A stretch of DNA of 64,000 nucleotides, taken from assembly GCA_964016885.1 (NCBI GenBank), contig OZ024763.1:4712001-4776000 (forward strand), written 5' to 3'. Position numbers and translations under genes: made by a program. The notes below the pieces were generated by a model. The model searched no databases and was not told the DNA's origin. It was given only the letters and a program-made list of their open reading frames with translations. The DNA comes from Eledone cirrhosa. Its lineage: Eukaryota. Shown in pieces: positions 6,150-60,629 of this stretch (position 1 is its first letter; each line of letters begins with the position of its first letter).

Positions 6150-6623
6150 GTACGTACGTCCTCACATACAGACCAAAAGGCATACACACGTGTACACACA
6201 CACAAATACATACACACAGAATTATCCAAAGAAACCCTCTTTTAAGTCCATAAACAATAGGAAGTAGCGATAATAAGGAAAAAAGGGAACCGCAAATTGC
6301 TCGGGTTTCTCACTAAAGACGGCATTCCTCAGCAAATATTTTCCGTATCAATGATTATCGATTAAAGAACAAAACATCTGGCCATGAATGATTTGCCAGT
6401 GGTTCTCAGAGCTCTTTCATGGTCAGTGACCAATTACCTCTGGTTTTAAATCACTTTTCAATACTGTTCTTGTTCACATACATTAATGTGTGCGTGTGTG
6501 AGTGCGCGTGCGCGCCTGTTTTACACCTGTATATAAATATATACATGTACATATACATATATATATATATGTGTTTATATATATATGTATATATATATAT
6601 ATGTGTATATATATATATATGTG

Positions 6624-7074: not shown

Positions 7075-7273
7075 TAGGTCCCGGGTTGAGTCGGGGATAA
7101 CCACAGTAAGTAAGGTACTCAATACATGGCAGAGTAAAATTTTTTTATTTTATAGAAGGAGCTTCTACAGGACTAGTACTGTTTCATTCAGATGAAATCT
7201 TCAGGAAGCACTGAAGGCTTCCTGAAGATTTCATCTGAATGAAACAGTACTAGTCCTGTAGAAGCTCCTTCTA
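7075..7273. mobile_element. Family B fold-back HHR element (two inverted ribozymes plus a one-sided tail) in (TA)n
   Basis: Arm 7152-7209 is the reverse complement of 7217-7273; tail extension 7075-7150 on one side only; TA tracts on both flanks. Confidence 0.8.
7217..7265 (+). ncRNA. Type I hammerhead ribozyme (inverted twin on minus strand at 7161-7209)
   Basis: GCUUC-CUGAAGA-U UUCA UC UGAA U-GAA ACAG UACUAGUC CUGU A|GAAGC; predicted GUA cleavage after 7260. Confidence 0.75.
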
Positions 7274-7290
7274 TATATATATATATATGT

Positions 7291-7890
7291 TGCTGTGAGC
7301 CACCGTGGACTCTTTCGGCCTCCACCCGCTTTCCTGTCGCCACAGGGCCGGCCGCCTTCCACGCCATGCTGTCCCCAAGGAGGTCATAAAGAATGGCCTG
7401 GACGTTGCAGGCTTCCCCCTCCAAGTTCGAGCCGGTGGGGCTGGACAGAGGGGACGGCAAAAGGCCAGACAGTATGACCATCTTCCCGTTCCGCGGTGGC
7501 AAACCCCTCGTCTGGGATGCCACTTGCAGCGACACTTTCTGCAGCCGCAACCTGGTGCAGTCTGCGACTGACCCAGGTTCTGCTGCACACCGGTCGCTCT
7601 TCGACGGGTTCGCGGTCGTGCCGTTGGCAGAAGGAGACTTCTGGTGTCCTTGGCCCTAGGGCTGCCTCCCTACTCACCACCATTGGCGCTGAGCTGGCCA
7701 GCCAGCCGCAGGTGTGAGCCTCGCGAGTTGGAATGGCTCTTCCAGCGCGTCTCCCTTACCATCTTCTGGGGAAACGCCTTCTCCATTCTGTCCGCCCGGA
7801 TTGTGGGGAGGTCACCACGTGGGACCCCATTTGCTCACCATACGGAGAGATGGGGAGTGCGAGAGAGATGGAGGCGATGACAGTGGGAGT
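7291..7890 (+). mobile_element. CRE-clade non-LTR retrotransposon 3' fragment (restriction-like endonuclease domain), frameshifted
   Basis: HPLSCR..GRLPRH; EPVGLDRGDGKRPDSMTIFPFRGGKPLVWDATCSDT; TSGVLGP; FQRVSLTIFWGNAFSI. Confidence 0.8.
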
Positions 7891-13227: not shown

Positions 13228-13339
13228 GAATTCCAACTTTGCCTGATTTACTCGTTTTATTTACAATCCTTTAAAATGTATAATGGTATTAGAATGAAAT
13301 AGTTGAAAATTGCAAACTTGACTGTCACCACAGAATATA

Positions 13340-13374
13340 AACCTGAAGATTGCGAAAGCATGAAAGTACTTGTT
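13340..13374 (+). ncRNA. Minimal type I hammerhead ribozyme between 22-bp inverted repeats (13282-13303 / 13407-13428)
   Basis: AAC-CUGAAGA-U UGC GAAA GCA U-GAA AGUACU U|GUU; palindromic stem III AGUACU, CUU cleavage triplet. Confidence 0.7.
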
Positions 13375-14039
13375 CAATTAACACTTAACATTTAATATTC
13401 TACCATACTATTTCATTCTAATACCATTCATTATACATGGGATCTTGAGCATTTTGAAACCTGGTGGAGCCCATCCCCTTTCCAGGTTTGAACACAATGG
13501 ATTTCTTCCAGAGAAGGAGACAGAGAGAGGGGATGAGAAAGAGATAGAGGAAGAATCAACCCCCACTACTGGACTGGTACTCTTTCTACCGACTTGGAAA
13601 GGATGAAAAGCAAAGTCGACCCCGGCAAGATTTGAACTCGGAGAGCGGAATTCATTCTAGCCGACGGTTTAACGATTCTGCCGATTGCTCCTGTAAGAGG
13701 ATGTAAGAGGATGTAAGAGGATGTAAGAGGATGTAAGCAAGTGCAAAGAGAAAAAATAAATAGATAAAGCGTGGGAAAGTTTGTTGACATAATATTGCAA
13801 AAGAGCTTCTACAAATGTAGACATTTGCAGGTGCGAGGTTAGAAAATACCTTGGAATCGATCAAATTTTACCTGGATTAAAATTTTATGGCACATCTTAC
13901 CTGTATCAGAGACACCACAGGACCGCACCCTTTGAAATTCAAAACCACCGATCTCACCGGCTCAGCTATTACTCTCACCCCTTCCAACACCCAAAGCTAC
14001 TGTTACCTTCACTACATGCCTTTACGTACACAAAACCTA

Positions 14040-24145: not shown

Positions 24146-24259
24146 TACGTTATTCCGGGTTGAATCGGAGGTAACCACAGTAAGTAAGGTACTCAATACA
24201 TTGCAGAGATTCCTGATGATTTCTAAAGAATGAAACAGTTCTAGTCCTGTAGAATCTCA

Positions 24260-24263
<4 letters not shown>
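24146..24263. mobile_element. Family B element with intact HHR at 24206-24258 (+)
   Basis: GAGAUUC-CUGAUGA-U UUC UAAA GAA U-GAA ACAG UUCUAGUC CUGU A|GAAUCUC; 7-bp stem I; inverted tail upstream; TA flanks. Confidence 0.8.
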
Positions 24264-24317
<54 letters not shown>

Positions 24318-25529: not shown

Positions 25530-26606
25530 GCTATTTATATATATATATACAGAAGCAAAGCGTGCTCGATCATAGAGATGCGATGTTAAATATTATAGCG
25601 GAGTTAATATTTAAGGAGAGTTAAGTGCTGAAGGTGAGCAGAGCGGATATAATAAAAAAAATATATGGAGGAGAAACCAAGAAAAAAATAAAGGGCCGAT
25701 CATGAATCTCTTCTTATACCTCCAACCATTTTTCTTAAAGAATAAATGTATCATGAATGTGTAGCCTTGCTTTGCTGTCGTACGAACTTGGACTTTCCAT
25801 CCAGCAACATCTTTAAGGACAATAATTTATCGCTGATGAGTCTTATAAGTACATCTCTACTGTAGTATGTATACACACATATATGTCTACCTGTTGTATC
25901 ATAAATGTACTGGAAGACGAAACACGTGTAAGAATTAAATCTTGTTTTTAGATGTTTTGCTTTCTCCTGTGTGTGTGTGCATATATACATATACCTATGT
26001 ATATATGTATATATATATATATATATATTTATATGTGTACACAACAGAATAAATAGCTGGAATGTCTGGCATATTTCCACAGTCCTATTAATGGGATGTT
26101 AGTCGAACTTTCTTATTTATTTAGTTTATCAACTACTGGAGTCAGTGTAGGCTACTGCCATTTTCCCAGCCCCGGCAACCATAGCTACTTATACACACAC
26201 ACACACCATACGCACGCCCTTAGACATACACCCTTACACGCACACGCATCCTCACACACACCCATTACATACACTCTCTTACACACGCATTATCACACAC
26301 ACATCCTCAGACTCATCCTCACACGCCCTCACTAACACATACTCACAGGCTTCCTTACACAAACCCTCACACATATTCTCTTTGCCCCTTACACTCATCC
26401 CCACACTCGTACCTCACAAATGAAACGGAATCATCATAACTGCAATGACGCCACAACTGGACGTGTACTTTTTTTTTTTATCAACTTTGAAAATTATGCA
26501 AAGCAAAGTTGAACCCTTCAGGATTTGAACCGGGGACGCTGGACTGAACAACTCAGAGCATTCTATCCGACGTTCTAACAACTCCACCAACTTATATCGT
26601 CTTATA

Positions 26607-28880
26607 ATGATTGTTTCTACTTTAGGCACAAGGCCAGCAATTACCCCAGTGTATTACTGGTGCTTTATTTTATCAACCCTGTAATACTTGTTTCTACTTT
26701 TGGGGGCACAAGGCCAGCAATTAACCCCAGTGTATTACTGGTACTTTATTTTATCAACCCTGTAATAATTGTTTCTACTTTTGGCACAAGGCCAGCAATT
26801 ACCCCCAGTGTATTACTGGTGCTTTATTTCATCAACCCTGTAATAATTGTTTCTACTTTTGGGGGCACAAGGCCAGCAATTAACCCCCAGTGTATTACTG
26901 GTGCTTTATTTTATCAACCCTGTAATAATTGTTTCTACTTTAGGCACAAGGCCAGCAATTACCCCAGTGTATTACTGGTGCTTTATTTTATCAACCCTGT
27001 AATAATTGTTTCTACTTTAGGCACAAGGCCAGCAATTACCCCAGTGTATTACTGGTGCTTTATTTTATCAACCCTGTAATAATTGTTTCTACTTTAGGCA
27101 CAAGGCCAGCAATTACCCCAGTGTATTACTGGTACTTTATTTTATCAACCCTGTAATAATTGTTTCTACTTTTGGGGGCACAAGGCCAGCAATTACCCCA
27201 GTGTATTACTGGTGCTTTATTTTATCAACCCTGTAATAATTGTTTCTACTTTTGGCACAAGGCCAGCAATTTCCCCAGTGTATTACTGGTGCTTTATTTT
27301 ATCGACCCTGTAATAATTGTTTCTACTTTAGGCACAAGAGGCCAGCAATTACGCCAGTGTATTACTGGTACTTTATTTTATCAACCCTGTAATAATTGTT
27401 TCTACTTTTGGGGGCACAAGGCCAGCAATTAACCTCCAGTGTATTACTGGTGCTTTATTTTATCAACCCTGTAATAATTGTTTCTACTTTAGGCACAAGG
27501 CCAGCAATTACCCCAGTGTATTACTGGTGCTTTATTTTATCAACCCTGTAATAATTGTTTCTACTTTAGGCACAAGGCCAGCAATTAACCCCAGTGTATT
27601 ACTGGTACTTTATTTTATCGACCCTGTAATAATTGTTTCTACTTTTGGGGGCACAAGGCCAGCAATTACCCCAGTGTATTACTGGTGCTTTATTTTATCA
27701 ACCCTGTAATTATTATTTCTACTTTTGGCGTGGTGGATTGGCAGTATCGGTAGAAGGTCGGACGCCATGCTTTCCAGCATAGTTACGTCCCTTTACGATC
27801 TGAGTTCAAATCCCGCCGAGGTTGACTTTGCCTTTCATCCTTACGGGGTCGATAAAATAAAGTACCAGTAATGCACTGGGTAATTTGCTGGCCTTGTGCC
27901 TAAAGTAGAAACAATTATTTCTACTTTTGGCACAAGGCCAGCAATTACCTCCAGTGTATTACTGGTGCTTTATTTTATCAACCCTGTAATAATTGTTTCT
28001 ACTTTTGGCACAAGGCCAGCAATTACCCCAGTGTATTACTGGTGCTTTATTTTATCAACCCTGTAATAATTGTTTCTACTTTTGGCACAAGGCCAGCAAT
28101 TACCCCCAGTGTATTACTGGTGCTTTATTTTATCAACCCTGTAATAATTGTTTCTACTTTAGGCACAAGGCCAGCAATTACCTCAGTGTATTACTGGTGC
28201 TTTATTTTATCAACCCTGTAATAATTGTTTCTACTTTTGGCACAAGGCCAGCAATTACCTCAGTGTATTACTGGTGCTTTATTTTATCAACCCTGTAATA
28301 ATTGTTTCTACTTTAGGCACAAGGCCAGCAATTACCCCAGTGTATTACTGGTACTTTATTTTATCAACCCTGTAATAATTGTTTCTACTTTTGGGGGCAC
28401 AAGGCCAGCAATTAACCTCCAGTGTATTACTGGTGCTTTATTTTATCAACCCTGTAATAATTGTTTCTACTTTAGGCACAAGGCCAGCAATTACCCCAGT
28501 GTATTACTGGTGCTTTATTTTATCAACCTTGTAATAATTGTTTCTACTTTAGGCACAAGGCCAGCAATTACCCCAGTGTATTACTGGTGCTTTATTTTAT
28601 CAACCCTGTAATAATTGTTTCTATTTTAGGCACAAGGCCAGCAATTATCCCAGTGTATTACTGGTGCTTTATTTTATCAACCCTGTAATAATTGTTTCTA
28701 CTTTTGGCACAAGGCCAGCAATTACCCCCAGTGTATTACTGGTGCTTTACTTTATCGACCCCCGTAAGGATGAAAGGCAAAGTTAACCTCGGCGGGATTT
28801 GAGCTCAGATCATAAAGGGACGTAACTCTATGCTGCAAAGAAGGGCGTCCGACCCTCTACCGATACTGTTAGTCCACCGC
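26607..28880 (-). repeat. Minisatellite of ~25 x 76-80-bp SINE 3' ends, ending in a full SINE (28690-28880)
   Basis: Unit TAATAATTGTTTCTACTTTAGGCACAAGGCCAGCAATTACCCCAGTGTATTACTGGTGCTTTATTTTATCAACCCTG. Confidence 0.92.
27730..27913 (+). mobile_element. SINE family 1 inserted antisense into the SINE-tail array, with 18-bp TSD
   Basis: ATTATTTCTACTTTTGGC at 27712-27729 and 27914-27931. Confidence 0.88.
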
Positions 28881-30372: not shown

Positions 30373-31190
30373 CGGTGGATTGGCAGTATCGGTAGAGGGT
30401 CGGAGGCCATGCTTTGACGCATGGAGTTACGGCCCTTGCCATTCTGAGTTCAAATCCCGCCGAGGTTAACTTTGCCTTTTATCCTTACGGGGTCGATAAA
30501 ATAAAGTACCAGTAATACACTGGGTAATTGCTGGCCTTCTGCCAAAAGTAGAAACAATTGCTACAAAGTTTCGGTCGTTGTAAGCTTCGGGATTCTTCAG
30601 TGGAAATCTCATTATTATAACTTGATTTATTCGGACTAATGTCTTCATCTTGATTGTTATAGCCAAAAGTAGAAACAATTTATTTACAATACCGTGTTAT
30701 TCGCGGAATTTTCCTTAACTGATGATTGTTAAACACCGCTTATTCGCAGAATCGTCAATATCTTACGCGATTTTCTTTAATGGCTTTTTTCGTGGTAATA
30801 TATGGGTCGGACGCCATGCTTTCCAGCATAGTTACGTCCCTTTACGATCTGAGTTCAAATCCCGCGGAGGTTGACTTTGCCTTTCATCCTTACGGAGTCG
30901 ATAACATAAAGTAAGTACCAGTAATGAACTGGGTTATTGCTGGCCTTGTGCCTAAAGTAGACACAAATATATATATATATATATTTTTAACGCTAAATTA
31001 TTAATTGTTTCTACTTTTGGCAGAAGGCCAGCAATCACCCAGTGTATTACTGGTACTTTATTTTATCGACCCCTGTAATGATGAAAGGCAAAGTTAACCT
31101 CGGCGGGATTTGAACTCAGAATGGCAAGGGCCATAACTCTATGCGTCAAAGCATGGCGTCCGATCCTCTACCGATACTGCCAATCCACCG
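30373..31190. mobile_element. Three SINE family 1 copies: 30373-30558 (+), 30803-30966 (+), 31006-31190 (-, with TSD)
   Basis: Consensus match; CGCTAAATTA(T/C)TAAT flanks the third copy. Confidence 0.85.
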
Positions 31191-33530: not shown

Positions 33531-33605
33531 TATGCCGTTTACAGCAGTTGTAGTGATAGACGTGGTCGAAGTTCGCTTATTAATGGTGCAGATGATATAG
33601 CAGTC

Positions 33606-33706
33606 ATCACAGTAAGTAATGTACTCAATACATAGCAGAGTATAAATATTTAATATAGAAATGGATTCTACAGGACTAGAACTGTTTCATTCGAAGGAAA
33701 TCACCA
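33606..33706 (-). mobile_element. Family B element, single arm with degenerate HHR core
   Basis: CACAGTAAGTAA.GTACTCAATAC...TTCTACAGGACTAGAACTGTTTCATTC. Confidence 0.7.
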
Positions 33707-34419: not shown

Positions 34420-34564
34420 CTGAGGAGCTTCCGCCATGTCGAAACGGCCGGAGCTCAGCCGTCGGGGTCCTGACTCTTTTTCCTATTTCCCACTCTACTA
34501 CCCTAAGTATTGAGTACTCTGGTGCGTTATGGTCCACCTGGTACCTTACCACACGTCCTTCGTA
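34420..34564 (+). mobile_element. Family A variant retaining a canonical CUGAGGA core
   Basis: CUGAGGA-G...C-GAAACGGC CGGAGCUCA GCCGUC|GGGGUC plus family tail. Confidence 0.7.
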
Positions 34565-34974: not shown

Positions 34975-35325
34975 ACGTTATTCCGGGTAGATTCGGAGGT
35001 AACCACAGTAAGTAAGGTACTCAATACATTGCAGAGTATAAAAGTTTTAATATATGATTTCTAAAGAATGAAACAGTTCTAGTCCTGTAGAATCTCATCT
35101 ATATTAAAACTAAATATATATATATATTTATATAAAAGGAAGTGTGGTAAGGAACCAGATGGACCATAACGCACCAGAGTACTCAATACTTAAGGTAGTA
35201 GAGTGGGAAATAGGAAAAAGTATGACCCCGACGGCAGAGCTCAAGCCGTTTCCACGACTATTTCTGGACTAGAAATAGCCGTCGAAACGGCTTGAGCTCT
35301 GCCGTCGGAGTGATACATTTTCCTA
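34975..35325. mobile_element. Family B element (34975-35110) next to a family A element (35133-35325, -)
   Basis: Consensus matches, TA spacer. Confidence 0.8.
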
Positions 35326-39808: not shown

Positions 39809-40043
39809 AATAATATATATATGTGTGTGTGTGTGTCAACATGAATGGACCTGTTATTTTTATCTAAAGACATTTTTTCCAATTCCAACCCGTCCGTCCC
39901 CTCAATCTATCTTATTTCTCATTCTGTCTTCCGATGAAGTACTAGCGTCCGAAACATTAAGACCCTCTTCCTGCTATATCAAGCTTTAACCTAATATATC
40001 CCTTCCATATATTGTATTGTGTTGTTATTTCTGTTTACCTTTT

Positions 40044-40166
<123 letters not shown>

Positions 40167-40825
40167 GTAATAATAATAAATTTGAAGACTAAAATCCAAA
40201 GAGGGCTTGATAAGGATAAATATATATCAAATATATAAGAACCGTAGAGCAAATATAAACTTTAATCTGTTATTTTAATAAATATATATATGTATATATA
40301 TACATATATGAGTTCGAAGCTCGAGAATTTATCCTTGATAGGATATTTCCGAAAACGAACGAAACCCTAAAGGGTAGAAACGTAATCCTGGTATGTGTAT
40401 ATGCATTTTTTCTTCTAACTTTAATTTTATACCTATGTGTGTATGGTTGACGATAAATTTAATCGATTTCCACGTGCTATTTAAATGGTGGGTAAATATT
40501 CTATAGCTGTTGATCGCGAATAGGTGGCTATCGTTTATTTATCTATTATTTCTTCACAGGTGCCTTTTAATCTTATAGCCTGGTTTAATTGTTTTTTTTT
40601 GTGTGGTTGATTATGCTAATTGGGAGAGAAAATTGAGTATATATCTTATCAAATGATTCTAAGGACATAATTTATAGTATATATATATATATATATATAT
40701 ATGAATATAGACATAGAATATTCGAAAATATTCTGTATGTTTATAATAAACATTTTGAAGACCTAATCGCTATAGAATAGAATACGTCACGTATTACAAT
40801 TAGATTCTCGATAAAAGCAAGGGAA

Positions 40826-40868
40826 GTAATCTACGCGTTTCATTCTCGTTAGAAATCATCAGGACTAC
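40826..40868 (-). ncRNA. Same HHR on the minus strand (also starting at 41136, 41446, 41756, 42066 and 42376)
   Basis: Exact reverse complement of 42682-42724. Confidence 0.85.
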
Positions 40869-42681
40869 ATATCCAGTGCTTTTATCGAGAATGACACAGC
40901 TAGAGACTTATAGAATACTTAGCTGTGTACAGGAACTGGTTTGAAAGAGCGGTTGCCGGTCCGGCAGAAATTAGAAATTGGAATAAATGCTCTGAAATAG
41001 CGATATATATGTGAATATAGACATAGAATATTCGAAAATATTCTGTATGTTTATAATAAACATTTTGAAGACCTAATCGCTATAGAATAGAATACGTCAC
41101 GTATTACAATTAGATTCTCGATAAAAGCAAGGGAAGTAATCTACGCGTTTCATTCTCGTTAGAAATCATCAGGACTACATATCCAGTGCTTTTATCGAGA
41201 ATGACACAGCTAGAGACTTATAGAATACTTAGCTGTGTACAGGAACTGGTTTGAAAGAGCGGTTGCCGGTCCGGCAGAAATTAGAAATTGGAATAAATGC
41301 TCTGAAATAGCGATATATATGTGAATATAGACATAGAATATTCGAAAATATTCTGTATGTTTATAATAAACATTTTGAAGACCTAATCGCTATAGAATAG
41401 AATACGTCACGTATTACAATTAGATTCTCGATAAAAGCAAGGGAAGTAATCTACGCGTTTCATTCTCGTTAGAAATCATCAGGACTACATATCCAGTGCT
41501 TTTATCGAGAATGACACAGCTAGAGACTTATAGAATACTTAGCTGTGTACAGGAACTGGTTTGAAAGAGCGGTTGCCGGTCCGGCAGAAATTAGAAATTG
41601 GAATAAATGCTCTGAAATAGCGATATATATGTGAATATAGACATAGAATATTCGAAAATATTCTGTATGTTTATAATAAACATTTTGAAGACCTAATCGC
41701 TATAGAATAGAATACGTCACGTATTACAATTAGATTCTCGATAAAAGCAAGGGAAGTAATCTACGCGTTTCATTCTCGTTAGAAATCATCAGGACTACAT
41801 ATCCAGTGCTTTTATCGAGAATGACACAGCTAGAGACTTATAGAATACTTAGCTGTGTACAGGAACTGGTTTGAAAGAGCGGTTGCCGGTCCGGCAGAAA
41901 TTAGAAATTGGAATAAATGCTCTGAAATAGCGATATATATGTGAATATAGACATAGAATATTCGAAAATATTCTGTATGTTTATAATAAACATTTTGAAG
42001 ACCTAATCGCTATAGAATAGAATACGTCACGTATTACAATTAGATTCTCGATAAAAGCAAGGGAAGTAATCTACGCGTTTCATTCTCGTTAGAAATCATC
42101 AGGACTACATATCCAGTGCTTTTATCGAGAATGACACAGCTAGAGACTTATAGAATACTTAGCTGTGTACAGGAACTGGTTTGAAAGAGCGGTTGCCGGT
42201 CCGGCAGAAATTAGAAATTGGAATAAATGCTCTGAAATAGCGATATATATGTGAATATAGACATAGAATATTCGAAAATATTCTGTATGTTTATAATAAA
42301 CATTTTGAAGACCTAATCGCTATAGAATAGAATACGTCACGTATTACAATTAGATTCTCGATAAAAGCAAGGGAAGTAATCTACGCGTTTCATTCTCGTT
42401 AGAAATCATCAGGACTACATATCCAGTGCTTTTATCGAGAATGACACAGCTAGAGACTTATAGAATACTTAGCTGTGTACAGGAACTGGTTTATTATAAA
42501 CATACAGAATATTTTCGAATATTCTATGTCTATATTCACATATATATCGCTATTTCAGAGCATTTATTCCAATTTCTAATTTCTGCCGGACCGGCAACCG
42601 CTCTTTCAAACCAGTTCCTGTACACAGCTAAGTATTCTATAAGTCTCTAGCTGTGTCATTCTCGATAAAAGCACTGGATAT

Positions 42682-42724
42682 GTAGTCCTGATGATTTCTA
42701 ACGAGAATGAAACGCGTAGATTAC
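42682..42724 (+). ncRNA. Minimal type I hammerhead ribozyme of the 310-nt unit (also 42992-43034 and 43302-43344)
   Basis: GUAGUC-CUGAUGA-U UUCU AACG AGAA U-GAA ACGCGU A|GAUUAC; stem I GUAGUC/GAUUAC; palindromic stem III; predicted GUA cleavage after 42718. Confidence 0.85.
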
Positions 42725-43595
42725 TTCCCTTGCTTTTATCGAGAATCTAATTGTAATACGTGACGTATTCTATTCTATAGCGATTAGGTCTTCAAAATGT
42801 TTATTATAAACATACAGAATATTTTCGAATATTCTATGTCTATATTCACATATATATCGCTATTTCAGAGCATTTATTCCAATTTCTAATTTCTGCCGGA
42901 CCGGCAACCGCTCTTTCAAACCAGTTCCTGTACACAGCTAAGTATTCTATAAGTCTCTAGCTGTGTCATTCTCGATAAAAGCACTGGATATGTAGTCCTG
43001 ATGATTTCTAACGAGAATGAAACGCGTAGATTACTTCCCTTGCTTTTATCGAGAATCTAATTGTAATACGTGACGTATTCTATTCTATAGCGATTAGGTC
43101 TTCAAAATGTTTATTATAAACATACAGAATATTTTCGAATATTCTATGTCTATATTCACATATATATCGCTATTTCAGAGCATTTATTCCAATTTCTAAT
43201 TTCTGCCGGACCGGCAACCGCTCTTTCAAACCAGTTCCTGTACACAGCTAAGTATTCTATAAGTCTCTAGCTGTGTCATTCTCGATAAAAGCACTGGATA
43301 TGTAGTCCTGATGATTTCTAACGAGAATGAAACGCGTAGATTACTTCCCTTGCTTTTATCGAGAATCTAATTGTAATACGTGACGTATTCTATTCTATAG
43401 CGATTAGGTCTTCAAAATGTTTATTATAAACATACAGAATATTTTCGAATATTCTATGTCTATATTCACATATATATCGCTATTTCAGAGCATTTATTCC
43501 AATATATATATATATATATACATATTAATTCAAAATATTAATAAATATAGACATTCACTTAATCAAAATATATTATATATATATATATATATATA

Positions 43596-43720
43596 TAGGA
43601 TCAAGTATGACCCCGACGGCAGAGCTCTGCTTTTCGGTTCCTATTACCCACTCTACTACCCTAAGTATTGAGTACTCTGGTGCGTTATGGTTCTTCTGGT
43701 TCCTTACCACATTTCCTTCG

Positions 43721-43723
<3 letters not shown>
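43596..43723 (+). mobile_element. Family A element with a central deletion
   Basis: Consensus match. Confidence 0.75.
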
Positions 43724-43759
<36 letters not shown>

Positions 43760-44262
43760 GGAAAAATTTGAACAGGAACAAAACAGAGAGGCAGTACAAC
43801 GAATGTCTATTAATTTCACGCTCTGGAGAGTGGGGTGGTGGTGGGGAACGACGTTTCGGGCATAAGCCCTTCCTCGGGTGAGAAGTGTGTGGGAACAGAG
43901 TTCAAAGGGTGTGTAGGGGAGTGGTGGAGACACATATAGCGAAAGGAAACGGTGCGAATGATATATATATAGTCACATGCTTACTGAGATATATACATAC
44001 ATATGCAAATATACTTGCACAGATATATACATACATGTGCAAATATACTTGCACAGATATATACATACATATACATACATGTACACATATACTTGCACAG
44101 ATATATACATACATATACATACATGTACAAATATACACATACTTACACGTATGACGATCTCGTTGCTACTACTCTTGTTGTTGCTGATATTATTGTTGTT
44201 GTATATCTGTGTTAGTATGTATAGACATACTATAGATATATACGCCCATATATATATATATA

Positions 44263-49487: not shown

Positions 49488-49567
49488 CACATGTGTGTGA
49501 GATGATTGTGAGTATGTGTGTATGGAGGTGAGTGTTGTGGTTGTATTTGGTCACTTAGCGGAAAGAT

Positions 49568-51605
49568 ATGTACATGAGTGCCGTGGATTGGCAGAATCGG
49601 TAGAGGGTCGGACGCCATGCTTTGCAGCGAAGAGTTACGGCCCTTTATGGTCTGAGTTCAAATCCCGCCGAGGTTAACTTTGCCTTTCATCCTTATGGGG
49701 TCGATAAAATAAAGTACCAGTCACGCACTGGGGTCGATTTAATCGACTTTCCCCTCCCCCAAATTACTGGCCTTGTGCCTATATAAGAAGCCATTATGTA
49801 CATGAGTGCCGTGGATTGGCAGAATCGGTAGAGGGTCGGACGCCATGCTTTGCAGCGAAGAGTTACGGCCCTTTATGGTCTGAGTTCAAATCCCGCCGAG
49901 GTTAACTTTGCCTTTCATCCTTATGGGGTCGATAAAATAAAGTACCAGTCACGCACTGGGGTCGATTTAATCGACTTTCCCCTCCCCCAAATTACTGGCC
50001 TTGTGCCTATATAAGAAGCCATTATGTACATGAGTGCCGTGGATTGGCAGAATCGGTAGAGGGTCGGACGCCATGCTTTGCAGCGAAGAGTTACGGCCCT
50101 TTATGGTCTGAGTTCAAATCCCGCCGAGGTTAACTTTGCCTTTCATCCTTATGGGGTCGATAAAATAAAGTACCAGTCACGCACTGGGGTCGATTTAATC
50201 GACTTTCCCCTCCCCCAAATTACTGGCCTTGTGCCTATATAAGAAGCCATTATGTACATGAGTGCCGTGGATTGGCAGAATCGGTAGAGGGTCGGACGCC
50301 ATGCTTTGCAGCGAAGAGTTACGGCCCTTTATGGTGTGAGTTCAAATCCCGCCGAGGTTAACTTTGCCTTTCATCCTTATGGGGTCGATAAAATAAAGTA
50401 CCAGTCACGCACTGGGGTCGATTTAATCGACTTTCCCCTCCCCCAAATTACTGGCCTTGTGCCTATATAAGAAGCCATTATGTACATGAGTGCCGTGGAT
50501 TGGCAGAATCGGTAGAGGGTCGGACGCCATGCTTTGCAGCGAAGAGTTACGGCCCTTTATGGTGTGAGTTCAAATCCCGCCGAGGTTAACTTTGCCTTTC
50601 ATCCTTATGGGGTCGATAAAATAAAGTACCAGTCACGCACTGGGGTCGATTTAATCGACTTTCCCCTCCCCCAAATTACTGGCCTTGTGCCTATATAAGA
50701 AGCCATTATGTACATGAGTGCCGTGGATTGGCAGAATCGGTAGAGGGTCGGACGCCATGCTTTGCAGCGAAGAGTTACGGCCCTTTATGGTGTGAGTTCA
50801 AATCCCGCCGAGGTTAACTTTGCCTTTCATCCTTATGGGGTCGATAAAATAAAGTACCAGTCACGCACTGGGGTCGATTTAATCGACTTTCCCCTCCCCC
50901 AAATTACTGGCCTTGTGCCTATATAAGAAGCCATTATGTACATGAGTGCCGTGGATTGGCAGAATCGGTAGAGGGTCGGACGCCATGCTTTGCAGCGAAG
51001 AGTTACGGCCCTTTATGGTCTGAGTTCAAATCCCGCCGAGGTTAACTTTGCCTTTCATCCTTATGGGGTCGATAAAATAAAGTACCAGTCACGCACTGGG
51101 GTCGATTTAATCGACTTTCCCCTCCCCCAAATTACTGGCCTTGTGCCTATATAAGAAGCCATTATGTACATGAGTGCCGTGGATTGGCAGAATCGGTAGA
51201 GGGTCGGACGCCATGCTTTGCAGCGAAGAGTTACGGCCCTTTATGGTGTGAGTTCAAATCCCGCCGAGGTTAACTTTGCCTTTCATCCTTATGGGGTCGA
51301 TAAAATAAAGTACCAGTCACGCACTGGGGTCGATTTAATCGACTTTCCCCTCCCCCAAATTACTGGCCTTGTGCCTATATAAGAAGCCATTATGTACATG
51401 AGTGCCGTGGATTGGCAGAATCGGTAGAGGGTCGGACGCCATGCTTTGCAGCGAAGAGTTACGGCCCTTTATGGTCTGAGTTCAAATCCCGCCGAGGTTA
51501 ACTTTGCCTTTCATCCATACGAGGTCGATAAAATAAAGTACCAGTAATACACTGAGGTAATTGCTGGCCTTGTGCCTAAAGTAGAAACAATTATGTTCAT
51601 GAGTG
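49568..51605 (+). repeat. Tandem array of 9 full SINEs, period 228 bp, each separated by TATGTACATGAGTG
   Basis: TACATGAGTG at 49571, 49799, 50027, 50255, 50483, 50711, 50939, 51167 and 51395. Confidence 0.93.
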
Positions 51606-53089: not shown

Positions 53090-53137
<48 letters not shown>

Positions 53138-53245
53138 TAAACGGAAAAGAAAATGCTGACAAATTGTTCCCAGTGAAAAATAGTTTAATTAGGAATAAGT
53201 AAAAATTAGTAATAGTATTGGTTAGTATTCAGTTTTAGTTTTAAG

Positions 53246-53281
53246 TTTTACCGGTTGCGCATTTCCAATGCTTTTCAAAAA
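53246..53281 (-). ncRNA. Minimal HHR, UUGAAAA-core lineage, with GAAA changed to GCAA
   Basis: UUU-UUGAAAA-GCAUU GGA AAUGC-GCA ACCGGU A|AAA, inside a TA-flanked ~325-bp insert. Confidence 0.5.
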
Positions 53282-53455
53282 TAATTTTGAGATAGACCGC
53301 CCGTGATGTTTGCTCTAATCTGATTAGTTTTGGAAATTCTACCTGTTTTATGTGAAAAGAGTGGCTCCAGATGTATTAAAATAAGTTTCGCGCCAATTCG
53401 TGTTGCAAAAATTCTTGTTTACCTATATATCATAACTCGTGTGTTACACCTCTAT

Positions 53456-58412: not shown

Positions 58413-58458
<46 letters not shown>

Positions 58459-58464
<6 letters not shown>

Positions 58465-58821
58465 GTGAGGTTTTTTTTACAAATTGAAAAATAACCGAGG
58501 TGTCCTACACGAGTGAAAGTATAAAGAAAAAGAGATGAAATCGAAAATGCAACTGGAGTCTTATTTTAAAAAAATATATATATATTTATTTGGTTCCTTT
58601 ACCGGTTTCGCAGTTCTTCTGCTTTTCAAAAGTACAGTTGAGATGAAGGGTCTGTGGTTTTTCTCACATCTGATGTGAGAAAAACCACAGACCCTCCATC
58701 TCAACTCTACTTTTGAAAAGCAGAAGAACTGCGAAACCGGTAAAGGAACCAAATAAATATATATATTTTTAAAAAAAATAAGACTCCAGTTGCATTTTCA
58801 ATTTCATCTCTTTTTCTTTAT
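58459..58821. mobile_element. Family D fold-back element (~300-bp palindrome, axis ~58671, one-sided tail) with two inverted HHRs
   Basis: + arm 58710-58745: CUU-UUGAAAA-GCAG AAGAA CUGC-GAA ACCGGU A|AAG; minus twin at 58597-58632; TA flanks. Confidence 0.8.
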
Positions 58822-59371
58822 ATATATATATATATATATATATATGCAGAGAGGGGGTGGGGGTGGGGTGGCGGTAGAGTGGGAGGGAGTGAGAGAGCGA
58901 GATTGGGAGTTACCTGTTTTGACTAATAAGACTATTGTTGAACTAACTCCTCAATACTTGGGAAAGTAGGGAGTAGGCATTGTAAAGATTTAGTGCCCGA
59001 CGGCTGAGCGCTTGCCTTTATATATAGAGGGGTGTATACGAAAGCATATACTATATGGCAGCTATACTATGGAAGAAATATTTTCTCTGAATACTTAACA
59101 GGATCAGTACGGTCGACAATGCCAGTCAGCGCTGTTTCAAGATATTTCTCTGTATGTGTGCTTGTCAGTATACGTGTTACTATGTCTGTCTGTGTGTGTG
59201 TGTGTGAGTGTGACACGCTTGTATGCGTCTTTTCGTGTGTGCGTTTATGCGTGTGCTTATATGTATGTGCGTACTTGAGTGAGTGTGTGTGTTTATGTGT
59301 TTATGTGTGTGAGCCTGTGTGTGTATTATATACATACCCTACACATATCAAATACATACATGCACACCATT

Positions 59372-59882: not shown

Positions 59883-60152
59883 TGCTCTGAAATAGCGATA
59901 TATACATGAATGTATGTACAGTATATTTGGCAATATACTGTATGGTTAATTAAAAACATTTAGAAGACCATTCACTATGAGTTTTAAAGTAGTGACTACG
60001 TCACTTACTTATTCTCGGCAAAAACAAAGAAGAGTGATCGACAGTCTGTTTCTCGCTCGTTATTGGTTATCAAGACCACTCACCCTTTTGCTTCTGTATA
60101 ATAGAATTCAAGTAATATTTAAGAGCTGATTAAAAAGATAGTTTGCCGGTCC
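59883..60152 (-). mobile_element. Diverged monomer related to the 310-bp retrozyme-like unit; HHR-like fold at 60032-60081
   Basis: Shares TGCTCTGAAATAGCGATATATA, AAACATTT.GAAGACC, TACGTCAC, ATTCTCG and TTGCCGGTCC in the same order. Confidence 0.7.
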
Positions 60153-60629
60153 AGTTAAATATTAGCTCCACTTTAATATTTAATATTGCTTCTTTAGGCA
60201 TTGAGCACGCTTCGCGCTATTTAAGGCATCTAACATAATGTATCATAATATCTTCTCCTCTGAACTTACGATGTATTCTATTTTTAACAAGAATCTGAAG
60301 CCCCTTACAGTAGTGTTTAACTAAACGGTCGAATTAATTAATTTGGTAAATCCTGTGGTAGTTCCACTAAAGTTTCCAAGTGTAACAATTTACGGAGTAT
60401 ATATAGAAATTTACAAAATTATTATTTAAAACATTACATTCCAGAAGAGTGAAAATAGCATTTATTGCATAACACTGACGCGTGTTTCTCCGTATGTGTT
60501 ATATATATCAGTCTAGGATCGCTAATATTTGACTATTTCCATCAAATTAAATCGTATCTAACTACTTTAAAAAAATCATATGTAGACACAACAAATTTTC
60601 AAAGTGGAATAAGACATTTTTCACATAAA

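Follow-up and report, generated by a model that had tools for sequence, protein, structure and literature searches.

Retrozymes are known from many animals, including corals, mussels and amphibians. The assumption since 2020 has been that Penelope-like elements (PLEs) copy the retrozymes of animals from circular RNA, on the basis of co-occurrence and shared ribozymes (PMC7229834, PMC7761336), and a review of that year notes that such repeats show no motif identifying the mobilising element (PMC7761336). Endonuclease-bearing (EN+) PLEs leave a recognisable signature at their insertions, namely an inverted 5'-truncated copy, a one-sided tail of 30-40 bp and a bias towards (TA)n (PMC8557442, PMC3846280). 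In vitro, a lizard PLE (PAc) nicks and extends both target strands, with two internal starts bounding the tail; insertion does not need cleavage by its hammerhead, and the RNA used is mainly unprocessed (PMC11167929).

The locus described here lies in a stretch of 64,000 nucleotides of the Eledone cirrhosa genome (contig OZ024763.1, positions 4,712,001 to 4,776,000), the whole of which is referred to as the window. It contains a tandem array with a period of 310 bp and a GC content of about 0.34-0.35 (over 41001-44000). An initial annotation had taken one unit of this array to be a retrozyme monomer with a branched, viroid-like fold. The most informative feature was overlooked there: the array is a two-armed PLE-type insertion. 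The element is probably a young, non-autonomous non-LTR retrozyme that is copied in trans by an endonuclease-bearing PLE from one RNA, which would itself probably be circular.

Anatomy of the 310-bp insertions

Features of the array are collected in Table 1, with unit positions 1-310 counted from 42719. No stop-to-stop frame of at least 120 aa overlaps the array and the unit is non-coding; an open frame for RT and GIY-YIG is absent from the element, which is non-autonomous. No tRNA was found in the window. An assembly fold-back artefact was considered and rejected, as neither the length nor the outer end nor the inner break is the same in the two arms, and their flanks differ as well.

Table 1. 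Coordinates of the 310-bp array, its predicted RNA structure and its ribozyme within the window
Feature	Position	Strand	Remarks
Left arm, 5.8 tandem units	40693..42492	-	outer end is the short site and runs into (TA)n
Right arm, 3.3 tandem units	42489..43503	+	outer end is the long (tail) site, unit position 165
Microhomology, 4 bp	42489..42492		joins the two 5'-truncated arms
Left (TA)n target half	40673..40702
Right (TA)n target half	43502..43520
Putative RT start 1, 'short end', unit 128-139	42846..42857	+	AUAUAUAU tract able to anneal to (TA)n
Putative RT start 2, 'long end', unit 163-170	42881..42888	+	mostly unpaired in the predicted fold
PLE-type 'tail', about 35 nt, between the arm ends	42849..42883	+	compared with PMC8557442, PMC11167929
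Retrozyme monomer, 310 nt	42719..43028	+	predicted hammerhead cut 42718/42719 to next cut 43028/43029
16-bp helix, 5' strand	42731..42746	+	pairs with 42968-42983
16-bp helix, 3' strand	42968..42983	+	pairs with 42731-42746
Hairpin 37-51	42755..42769	+	specific to the 310-bp family
Helix strand AUAGCGAU	42777..42784	+	partner 42856-42863; nearly invariant in sisters
Hairpin 79-95	42797..42813	+
Hairpin 98-117	42816..42835	+	UUCG loop in this unit
Hairpin 176-188	42894..42906	+	5 bp with a 3-nt loop
Helix 214-222/240-248 with loop	42932..42966	+	in-register form specific to the 310-bp family
Type I hammerhead	42986..43038	+	core match; Rfam without call
Hammerhead stem I	5' strand 42986-42997, 3' strand 43029-43038	+
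Hammerhead core	CUGAUGA 42998-43004; GAAA 43019-43022	+
Hammerhead stem II	43005-43018	+	U.U at base, loop AACG
Hammerhead stem III	CGCG 43023-43026	+	1 bp, within palindrome ACGCGU; then UA, predicted cut after 43028
Upstream hammerhead copy	42676..42728	+	core match 42688-42713; would free the monomer 5' end

The window array was compared with two further sets of arrays on C1, ten chosen by the ribozyme core alone and 20 chosen by one end, with TA selected at that end. Among the core-chosen arrays and the window array, 10 of 11 consist of two divergent arms in TA-rich tracts. At L033 there is a single arm only. The 30 loci on C1 have unrelated flanks. The outer ends of 310-bp arrays lie in (TA)-rich tracts, and target-site duplications cannot be discerned inside (TA)n.

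The two outer ends of an insertion are not equivalent. Every two-armed locus with both outer ends in view (28/28) has one end at unit position 128-139 and the other at 163-170. Similarly, all 48 divergent end pairs found in C1:1-162 Mb are mixed (short plus long), the strict patterns used for this pairing leaving 16 of 64 long ends and 29 of 77 short ends without a partner. When genome copies were counted by sequence patterns, at least 1,220 long (tail)/(TA)n junctions were found genome-wide and 636 short ends on the forward strand; for the reverse strand, double matches inflate the number. A crude end classifier applied to the sister families described below gave four distinct mixed loci and two short-short calls, at least one of which is false and lies on an expanded internal TA tract; therefore, the long/short rule is established for the 310-bp family only and not for its sisters.

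The inner ends of the arms follow another pattern. In 31 stretches, 29 inverted junctions were present, and the 58 inner arm ends are spread around the unit, and none comes as close as 5 nt to the cleavage site. Of 29 inner junctions, 20 are blunt or have an overlap of 1-5 bp, and unit-to-unit junctions are seamless in block alignments. The median arm length is 4.4 units, and the longest arm has at least 24.

Two inner junctions are of a different kind. At L052:2598-2871, 272 bp of foreign sequence is caught between the arms, and at L041:4343-4527 the junction is complex, with short back-and-forth template jumps. Additionally, a second small element with short inverted arms occurs in (TA)n (L140:7000-7200 and L147:4130-4330) and is also present in the window (7081-7297, 24148-24279, 33603-33706 and 34976-35111).

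The hammerhead ribozyme

Each unit carries CUGAUGA and GAAA, which we take to match the hammerhead core consensus. Stem I has 6 bp plus 3 bp and, as had been proposed, is extended by the 16-bp helix, which is present with a mean pair probability of 0.95 and is conserved by covariation. Stem II has 4 bp with U.U at its base, and the predicted cut falls after GUA; the annotated 310-nt monomer runs exactly from one cut site to the next. All nine hammerhead cores in the window array have the sense orientation of the unit, and the hammerhead pattern found no antisense core in the array (other ribozyme classes were covered through Rfam only). Across the window there are 16 core matches, compared to 0.12 expected. 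The window's 43-nt core has 4,033 exact copies in the genome (3.0 Gb), and a slightly relaxed core gave 16,968 matches and no control matches. The exact ribozyme pattern had no match in the viral and metagenome contigs searched.

The ribozyme is weak on paper, with a U.U pair at the base of stem II, a predicted stem II probability of 0.14 in the circular ensemble and no Rfam match. Rfam at gathering scores gave no match in the whole window, and in E-value mode only chance matches over 42900-43150; in two sister loci Hammerhead_HH9 was matched, though short of its threshold (E 0.002 and 0.08). For PLEs, type I hammerheads with a weak or short palindromic stem III have been described (PMC4209133), and in animals the usual hammerhead has a short palindromic stem III and works as a dimer (PMC4209133, PMC7229834). 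The computed energy of an ACGCGU self-duplex is -7.5 kcal/mol. Conservation of the core is an indirect sign that the predicted ribozyme would cleave itself. In Xenopus, eight of nine retrozyme dimers were without cleavage (bioRxiv 10.64898/2026.07.22.740005).

Other hammerhead-like sequences are scattered through the window as cores or decayed remnants (1147-1179, 6305-6332, 30568-30600 and 34420-34445), and further remnants were seen by eye at about 39925-39960 and 43850-43885. In the second small element the hammerhead is nearly identical to the unit's in its core and stem II (U.U base, GUA cut), with a stem III of 3 bp. The 310-bp family may have taken its ribozyme from this element while keeping the body of its sister families.

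RNA folding of the 310-nt unit

The ten helix strings named in the initial annotation each occur once in 42719-43028, at complementary places. Compared with shuffled sequences, the circular fold of the unit is clearly unusual (MFE -67.8, z -4.3, 0/300 shuffles as good; z -3.8 in a rerun with 40 shuffles), as is the linear fold (MFE -72.5 kcal/mol, z -3.9, 1/100 shuffles equally good). Four other tandem units of the window (228, 98, 77 and 266 bp) have z-scores of -0.9 to +1.5 on both strands, and the fold is thus unusual for a satellite in this window, as had been claimed. Two of these repeats, with 77-bp and 228-bp units and no folding signal, form the arrays at 26605-28761 and 49567-51545, which we take to be SINE-like sequence.

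Much of the folding signal comes from the 16-bp helix, as shuffling one of its strands in three trials lowered the z-score to -1.1, -1.5 and -2.2. In the circular ensemble, the mean pair probability is high for hammerhead stem I (0.92-0.97), helix 214/248 (0.98) and hairpins 176-188 (0.93), 37-51 (0.89) and 98-117 (0.89), and lower for helix 59/145 (0.57) and hairpin 79-95 (0.42). Two of the annotated hairpins differ in detail from their first description. The hairpin read as UGCCGG-A-CCGGCA exists, but its one-nucleotide loop cannot close and it has 5 bp with a 3-nt loop instead. The UUCG-loop hairpin is likewise present in the unit, but not as a conserved stable tetraloop, because its closing pair is U-A and the loop is GCCA or GCAA in most sister copies.

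The reverse strand of the unit folds equally well or better (z -4.5 linear, -5.2 circular) because the helices are Watson-Crick, and energy alone therefore cannot name the strand. The paired fraction of the circular MFE structure is 0.60, compared to 0.56 in shuffles, and is 0.46 for the named helices together with hammerhead stems I and II; the energy per nucleotide is -0.22 kcal/mol.

Sister families and selection on the fold

Older sister families, identified with a search pattern built to exclude the 310-bp family, have 5,263 matches genome-wide, with units of 313-322 bp that are about 66% identical to the 310-bp unit. One old copy lies within the window itself (59901-60165, minus strand) and is 73% identical to the L033 sister copy. 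Nine variants of the 310-bp family were aligned with 29 near-full sister copies (alignment A1); these came from 36 stretches, the seven left out being shorter, rearranged or redundant. The pairs scored were those of the annotated helices and of hammerhead stems I and II, with slid helices as controls.

In this alignment 84% of cells are paired, compared to 34-44% in the slid controls, and both sides have changed in 33 of 73 pairs, compared to 9-14 in the controls; these figures are not probabilities, because the structure comes from one row of the alignment and the relatives are not independent. Five of the seven named helices are kept in the sister copies. The 16-bp helix is kept with double-sided changes in 9 of its 16 pairs, hammerhead stems I and II are kept and covary, and helix 59-66/138-145 is nearly invariant. 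Among the hairpins kept, 79-95 has changed from U-A to C-G in 11 sister copies, 98-117 has two compensatory pairs and 98% of its cells paired, and 176-188 has changed from C-G to U.G in 27 of 29. Among the 29 sisters, pairing in register is not preserved for hairpin 37-51 or for helix 214-222/240-248, and by eye the region of the former apparently holds a shifted hairpin. When RNAalifold was applied to A1, it found stem II, 98-117, 176-188 and the core of the 16-bp helix but not stem I, 79-95 or 59/145, and it suggested pairs of its own; the named pairs were therefore counted instead. G.U cells outnumber A.C cells by 138 to 64, which indicates the plus strand.

The ribozyme core covaries too. 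By eye, core positions 3 and 8 in the 29 sisters are C-G in 14, U-A in 13, U-G in one and A-G in one, and never C-A; a link between these positions of the hammerhead core has been described (PMC11167929). Sister families split into those with CUGAUGA and those with UUGAUAA cores, a concerted change of 3 and 8, and their stem III has 2-4 bp (A1; L061-L130), longer than in the 310-bp unit.

Within the young family, substitutions were collected from 261 full copies at 28 loci. None of the 14 that are fixed at a locus, and had thus been propagated, breaks a named pair or the core, compared to 15 of the 31 private ones (Fisher p 0.0014); the RNA fold thus acts as a filter on the copies that spread. 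Eight of these 14 are unpaired and six preserve a pair, one of the six restoring the base pair of stem II. Taken with the compensatory changes among sisters, by which helices are retained, the sequence comparisons argue that the fold is selected at the RNA level.

An ordinary AT-rich satellite, whose palindromes are due to chance or have a role in the DNA itself, would share the low GC content, the AT-rich helices and a paired fraction near that of shuffles. This explanation is largely refuted and hardly tenable given a z-score of -4.3 against about 0 for other window repeats, the compensatory and G.U changes, a full hammerhead core with 3-8 covariation and more than 1,200 dispersed insertions with fixed ends. 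An endogenised viroid-like replicon, copied from RNA to RNA and leaving the DNA arrays as footprints, would fit the size of 310 nt, the better-than-shuffled folding of both strands and the selection on RNA structure. Such a replicon is nevertheless very improbable. The arrays are chromosomal and lie in unique flanks, the insertions are separated by very few differences, and sister families together with PLE-type insertions explain the element without RNA replication. The branched fold and the retrozyme monomer of the initial annotation are supported, whereas its term 'viroid-like' goes too far: pairing is modest (60%, -0.22 kcal/mol per nt), the hammerhead core occurs in the sense polarity only, and what spreads is a repeat in the chromosomes, by insertion of DNA.

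Sequence variants shared by the two arms

Twelve loci were informative, meaning that each arm had full copies and that the locus differed from the window at least once. In 11 of them the set of variants is identical in both arms, including variants unique to one locus. Private differences amount to at most 51 in 80,910 bases, and the 310-bp family is therefore very young. The fixed rare variants, the seamless junctions and the lack of run-off at the cut site are what copying of one circle predicts, although they are not proof of it; identical RNAs of one dominant parent locus, or conversion from arm to arm, could mimic part of this pattern. At L060:376-4394 the array is a mosaic in which the outer ~4.5 units of the minus arm are without 276A>G, while the inner units and the whole plus arm carry it. 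One circle alone cannot give this arrangement, which may reflect switching between templates or conversion at a later time. At L050, L051 and L052, a few private variants are found more than once within arms.

The chief rival retains the same element and PLE machinery, with the uncut linear read-through transcript of a parent array as the template and any circles as a by-product. It would accord with the in vitro behaviour of the PAc element, for which the hammerhead is dispensable and unprocessed RNA is the chief substrate (PMC11167929), and with a unit ribozyme that looks weak (stem II probability 0.14). Uncut RNA would explain the lack of inner ends at the cleavage site no less well than a circle does, and the L060 mosaic, like the private variants that recur, would be in keeping with heterogeneous templates. 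However, rare variants are fixed in all units of both arms at 11 of 12 loci, which under linear copying needs a bottleneck of one unit in each generation, and in the four loci itemised by individual copy no private variant is mirrored between arms. Since every arm is 5'-truncated, arrays copied from a linear template would become shorter with each round, and yet arms reach 24 units. There are also no propagated substitutions in the ribozyme core. A linear template is therefore considered unlikely.

Alternatively, a short PLE-derived unit may have been inserted and then grown locally as a minisatellite by unequal crossover, a model proposed for vertebrate retrozymes (bioRxiv 10.64898/2026.07.22.740005). 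The few variants common to neighbouring or periodic copies (L050 and L052) would suit this model. It is improbable here, in that the youngest family has the longest arrays and the older sisters (30 loci examined) have mostly one to two units per arm, private variants are mostly singletons, and both inverted arms are long and identical.

In the preferred reading, the template is one 310-nt RNA, which judging from the DNA pattern is probably circular. In two of four sequencing runs of unspecified kind (X1 and X2), one 340-nt contig each was obtained (310 nt plus a 30-nt overlap), which fits a circle or a collapsed tandem equally and is therefore no evidence for a circle. Caution is warranted more generally, as collapsed arrays give circular-looking contigs of 340 nt (310+30) that viroid-mining pipelines could misread as a replicon.

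A candidate PLE partner

The genome carries PLEs with RT and with GIY-YIG at the C-terminus, some with long open frames, as found by scoring 150 of 10,595 candidates of a GIY-YIG search. BLAST of the unit's body against 20 PLE loci found AT-rich noise and neighbouring small elements only, and no homology. One of these elements, L133 (840-6170), is a young PLE in (TA)n with an open frame of 1,096 codons, an inverted pLTR and a 37-nt tail. Its family has inverted arms and 783 tail matches genome-wide, and its ORF stretches are mostly 97-98% identical (82-86% in two loci).

The final seven letters of the L133 tail are the same as those of the unit, and 25 of 50 end-anchored letters match, a score attained in 21 of 5000 shuffles (p about 0.004 before correction). 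The corresponding matches are 11-21 for other PLE families and 20 for the sisters, L133 being the best of five families and chosen post hoc. The L133 family is thus put forward as a tentative candidate for the partner PLE of the 310-bp retrozyme, a weakly supported lead from tail similarity that is judged somewhat less likely than not.

The L133 pLTR also has a hammerhead-like core. Other PLE families (L131, L134/L138/L146, L137/L143/L147, L148 and L150) have by eye minimal hammerhead-like motifs at the 3' side with a palindromic stem III, and the L134 family likewise has U.U at the base of stem II. PLE end fragments occur in the window at 13301-13435 (L146), 53091-53420 (L143) and 58416-58822 (L131, inverted pair).

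Proposed mechanism and implications

We infer the following course from the insertions and their RNA-level conservation. Read-through transcripts of an array would cleave themselves after GUA, probably as a double hammerhead because stem III has 1 bp yet ACGCGU is self-complementary, and the 310-nt monomer would be ligated into a circle. A PLE protein, probably a dimer, would nick both strands of a (TA)n tract, and each of the two 3' ends would prime at its own internal site, the sites lying ~35 nt from one another, with AU microhomology as an aid. Both cDNAs would circle the same template several times, stop at random and be joined at microhomologies of 0-5 bp. The fold would keep the RNA fit for cutting, ligation and recognition.

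Stated in its strictest form, this would be twin-primed rolling-circle reverse transcription in vivo, in which a PLE dimer uses one ribozyme-made circle and two fixed (TA)n-primed starts ~35 nt apart, strictly one per strand, for up to two dozen rounds, and the family may also have acquired its ribozyme from the second small element and shifted its tail towards the active L133 PLE. The chances that this whole account is correct appear to be about even. If the twin-primed reading is true, the mobiliser of animal retrozymes would be named, the circle would be their transposition intermediate, and the reaction would be a natural case of microsatellite-targeted DNA writing from a circular RNA template.

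The PLE fingerprint in the 310-bp insertions makes the question of how retrozymes spread directly testable. The family is young, and over a thousand insertions retain the footprint of the PLE tail, inverted arms, one template variant each and selection on the fold. A defined in vitro system follows, consisting of an RNA, two start sites, a DNA target and a candidate enzyme. Additionally, the PLE mechanism itself is sharpened, since the two start sites known in vitro are apparently used one per strand in every insertion examined.

Comparison with known systems

The 310-bp element shows each DNA feature of non-LTR retrozymes that was tested, being repeated, non-coding, dispersed and self-paired, with a type I hammerhead. 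It resembles the metazoan non-LTR retrozymes (PMC7229834) in having a tandem unit of 150-450 bp, a GC content under 50%, one type I hammerhead per unit, no apparent LTR, PBS, PPT or coding frame, thousands of copies and a predicted self-paired circle. Two axolotl designs meet in its ribozyme, which has a 1-bp palindromic stem III as in HHR_Amex1 and U.U at the base of stem II as in HHR_Amex2 (PMC7229834). Circles and cleavage were demonstrated for those retrozymes, whereas the 310-bp element is known from DNA alone; conversely, divergent two-armed arrays, a tail or (TA)n targeting are not described in the accessible part of that report. In the openly accessible literature, supplements aside, we found no description of retrozyme arrays with two divergent arms and a PLE tail, and this anatomy may be general in retrozymes and simply unreported.

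Vertebrate retrozymes have been presented as derivatives of PLE pLTRs (bioRxiv 10.64898/2026.07.22.740005), and the link between retrozymes and PLEs is common to both studies. The evidence given there is co-occurrence and pLTR homology, and the authors lean towards local satellite growth; in the available text of the preprint 'tail' and 'orientation' are absent and 'inverted' occurs in a reference only.

With EN+ PLEs the element shares an inverted 5'-truncated copy beside a direct copy, a tail of 30-40 bp at one end, microsatellite targets and two internal RT starts (PMC8557442, PMC3846280, PMC11167929), as well as a type I hammerhead with a weak palindromic stem III (PMC4209133). Unlike them, it is without an RT/EN frame, its helices beyond the ribozyme are conserved, and in both arms one 310-bp unit is repeated in a long tandem array, where EN+ PLEs have partial tandems. 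In Chlamydomonas, non-autonomous PLEs such as MRC1 have 3' sequence in common with their autonomous partners (PMC8557442), whereas the 310-bp unit has only a weak 50-nt resemblance to one PLE family, together with a full hammerhead.

Hammerhead viroids and viroid-like circular RNAs are similar to the unit in size, branched fold and hammerhead. Unlike them, the unit is a chromosomal repeat with a ribozyme of one polarity, modest pairing and no sign of RNA-to-RNA replication. The 310-bp element works like a non-autonomous PLE and is not a viroid.
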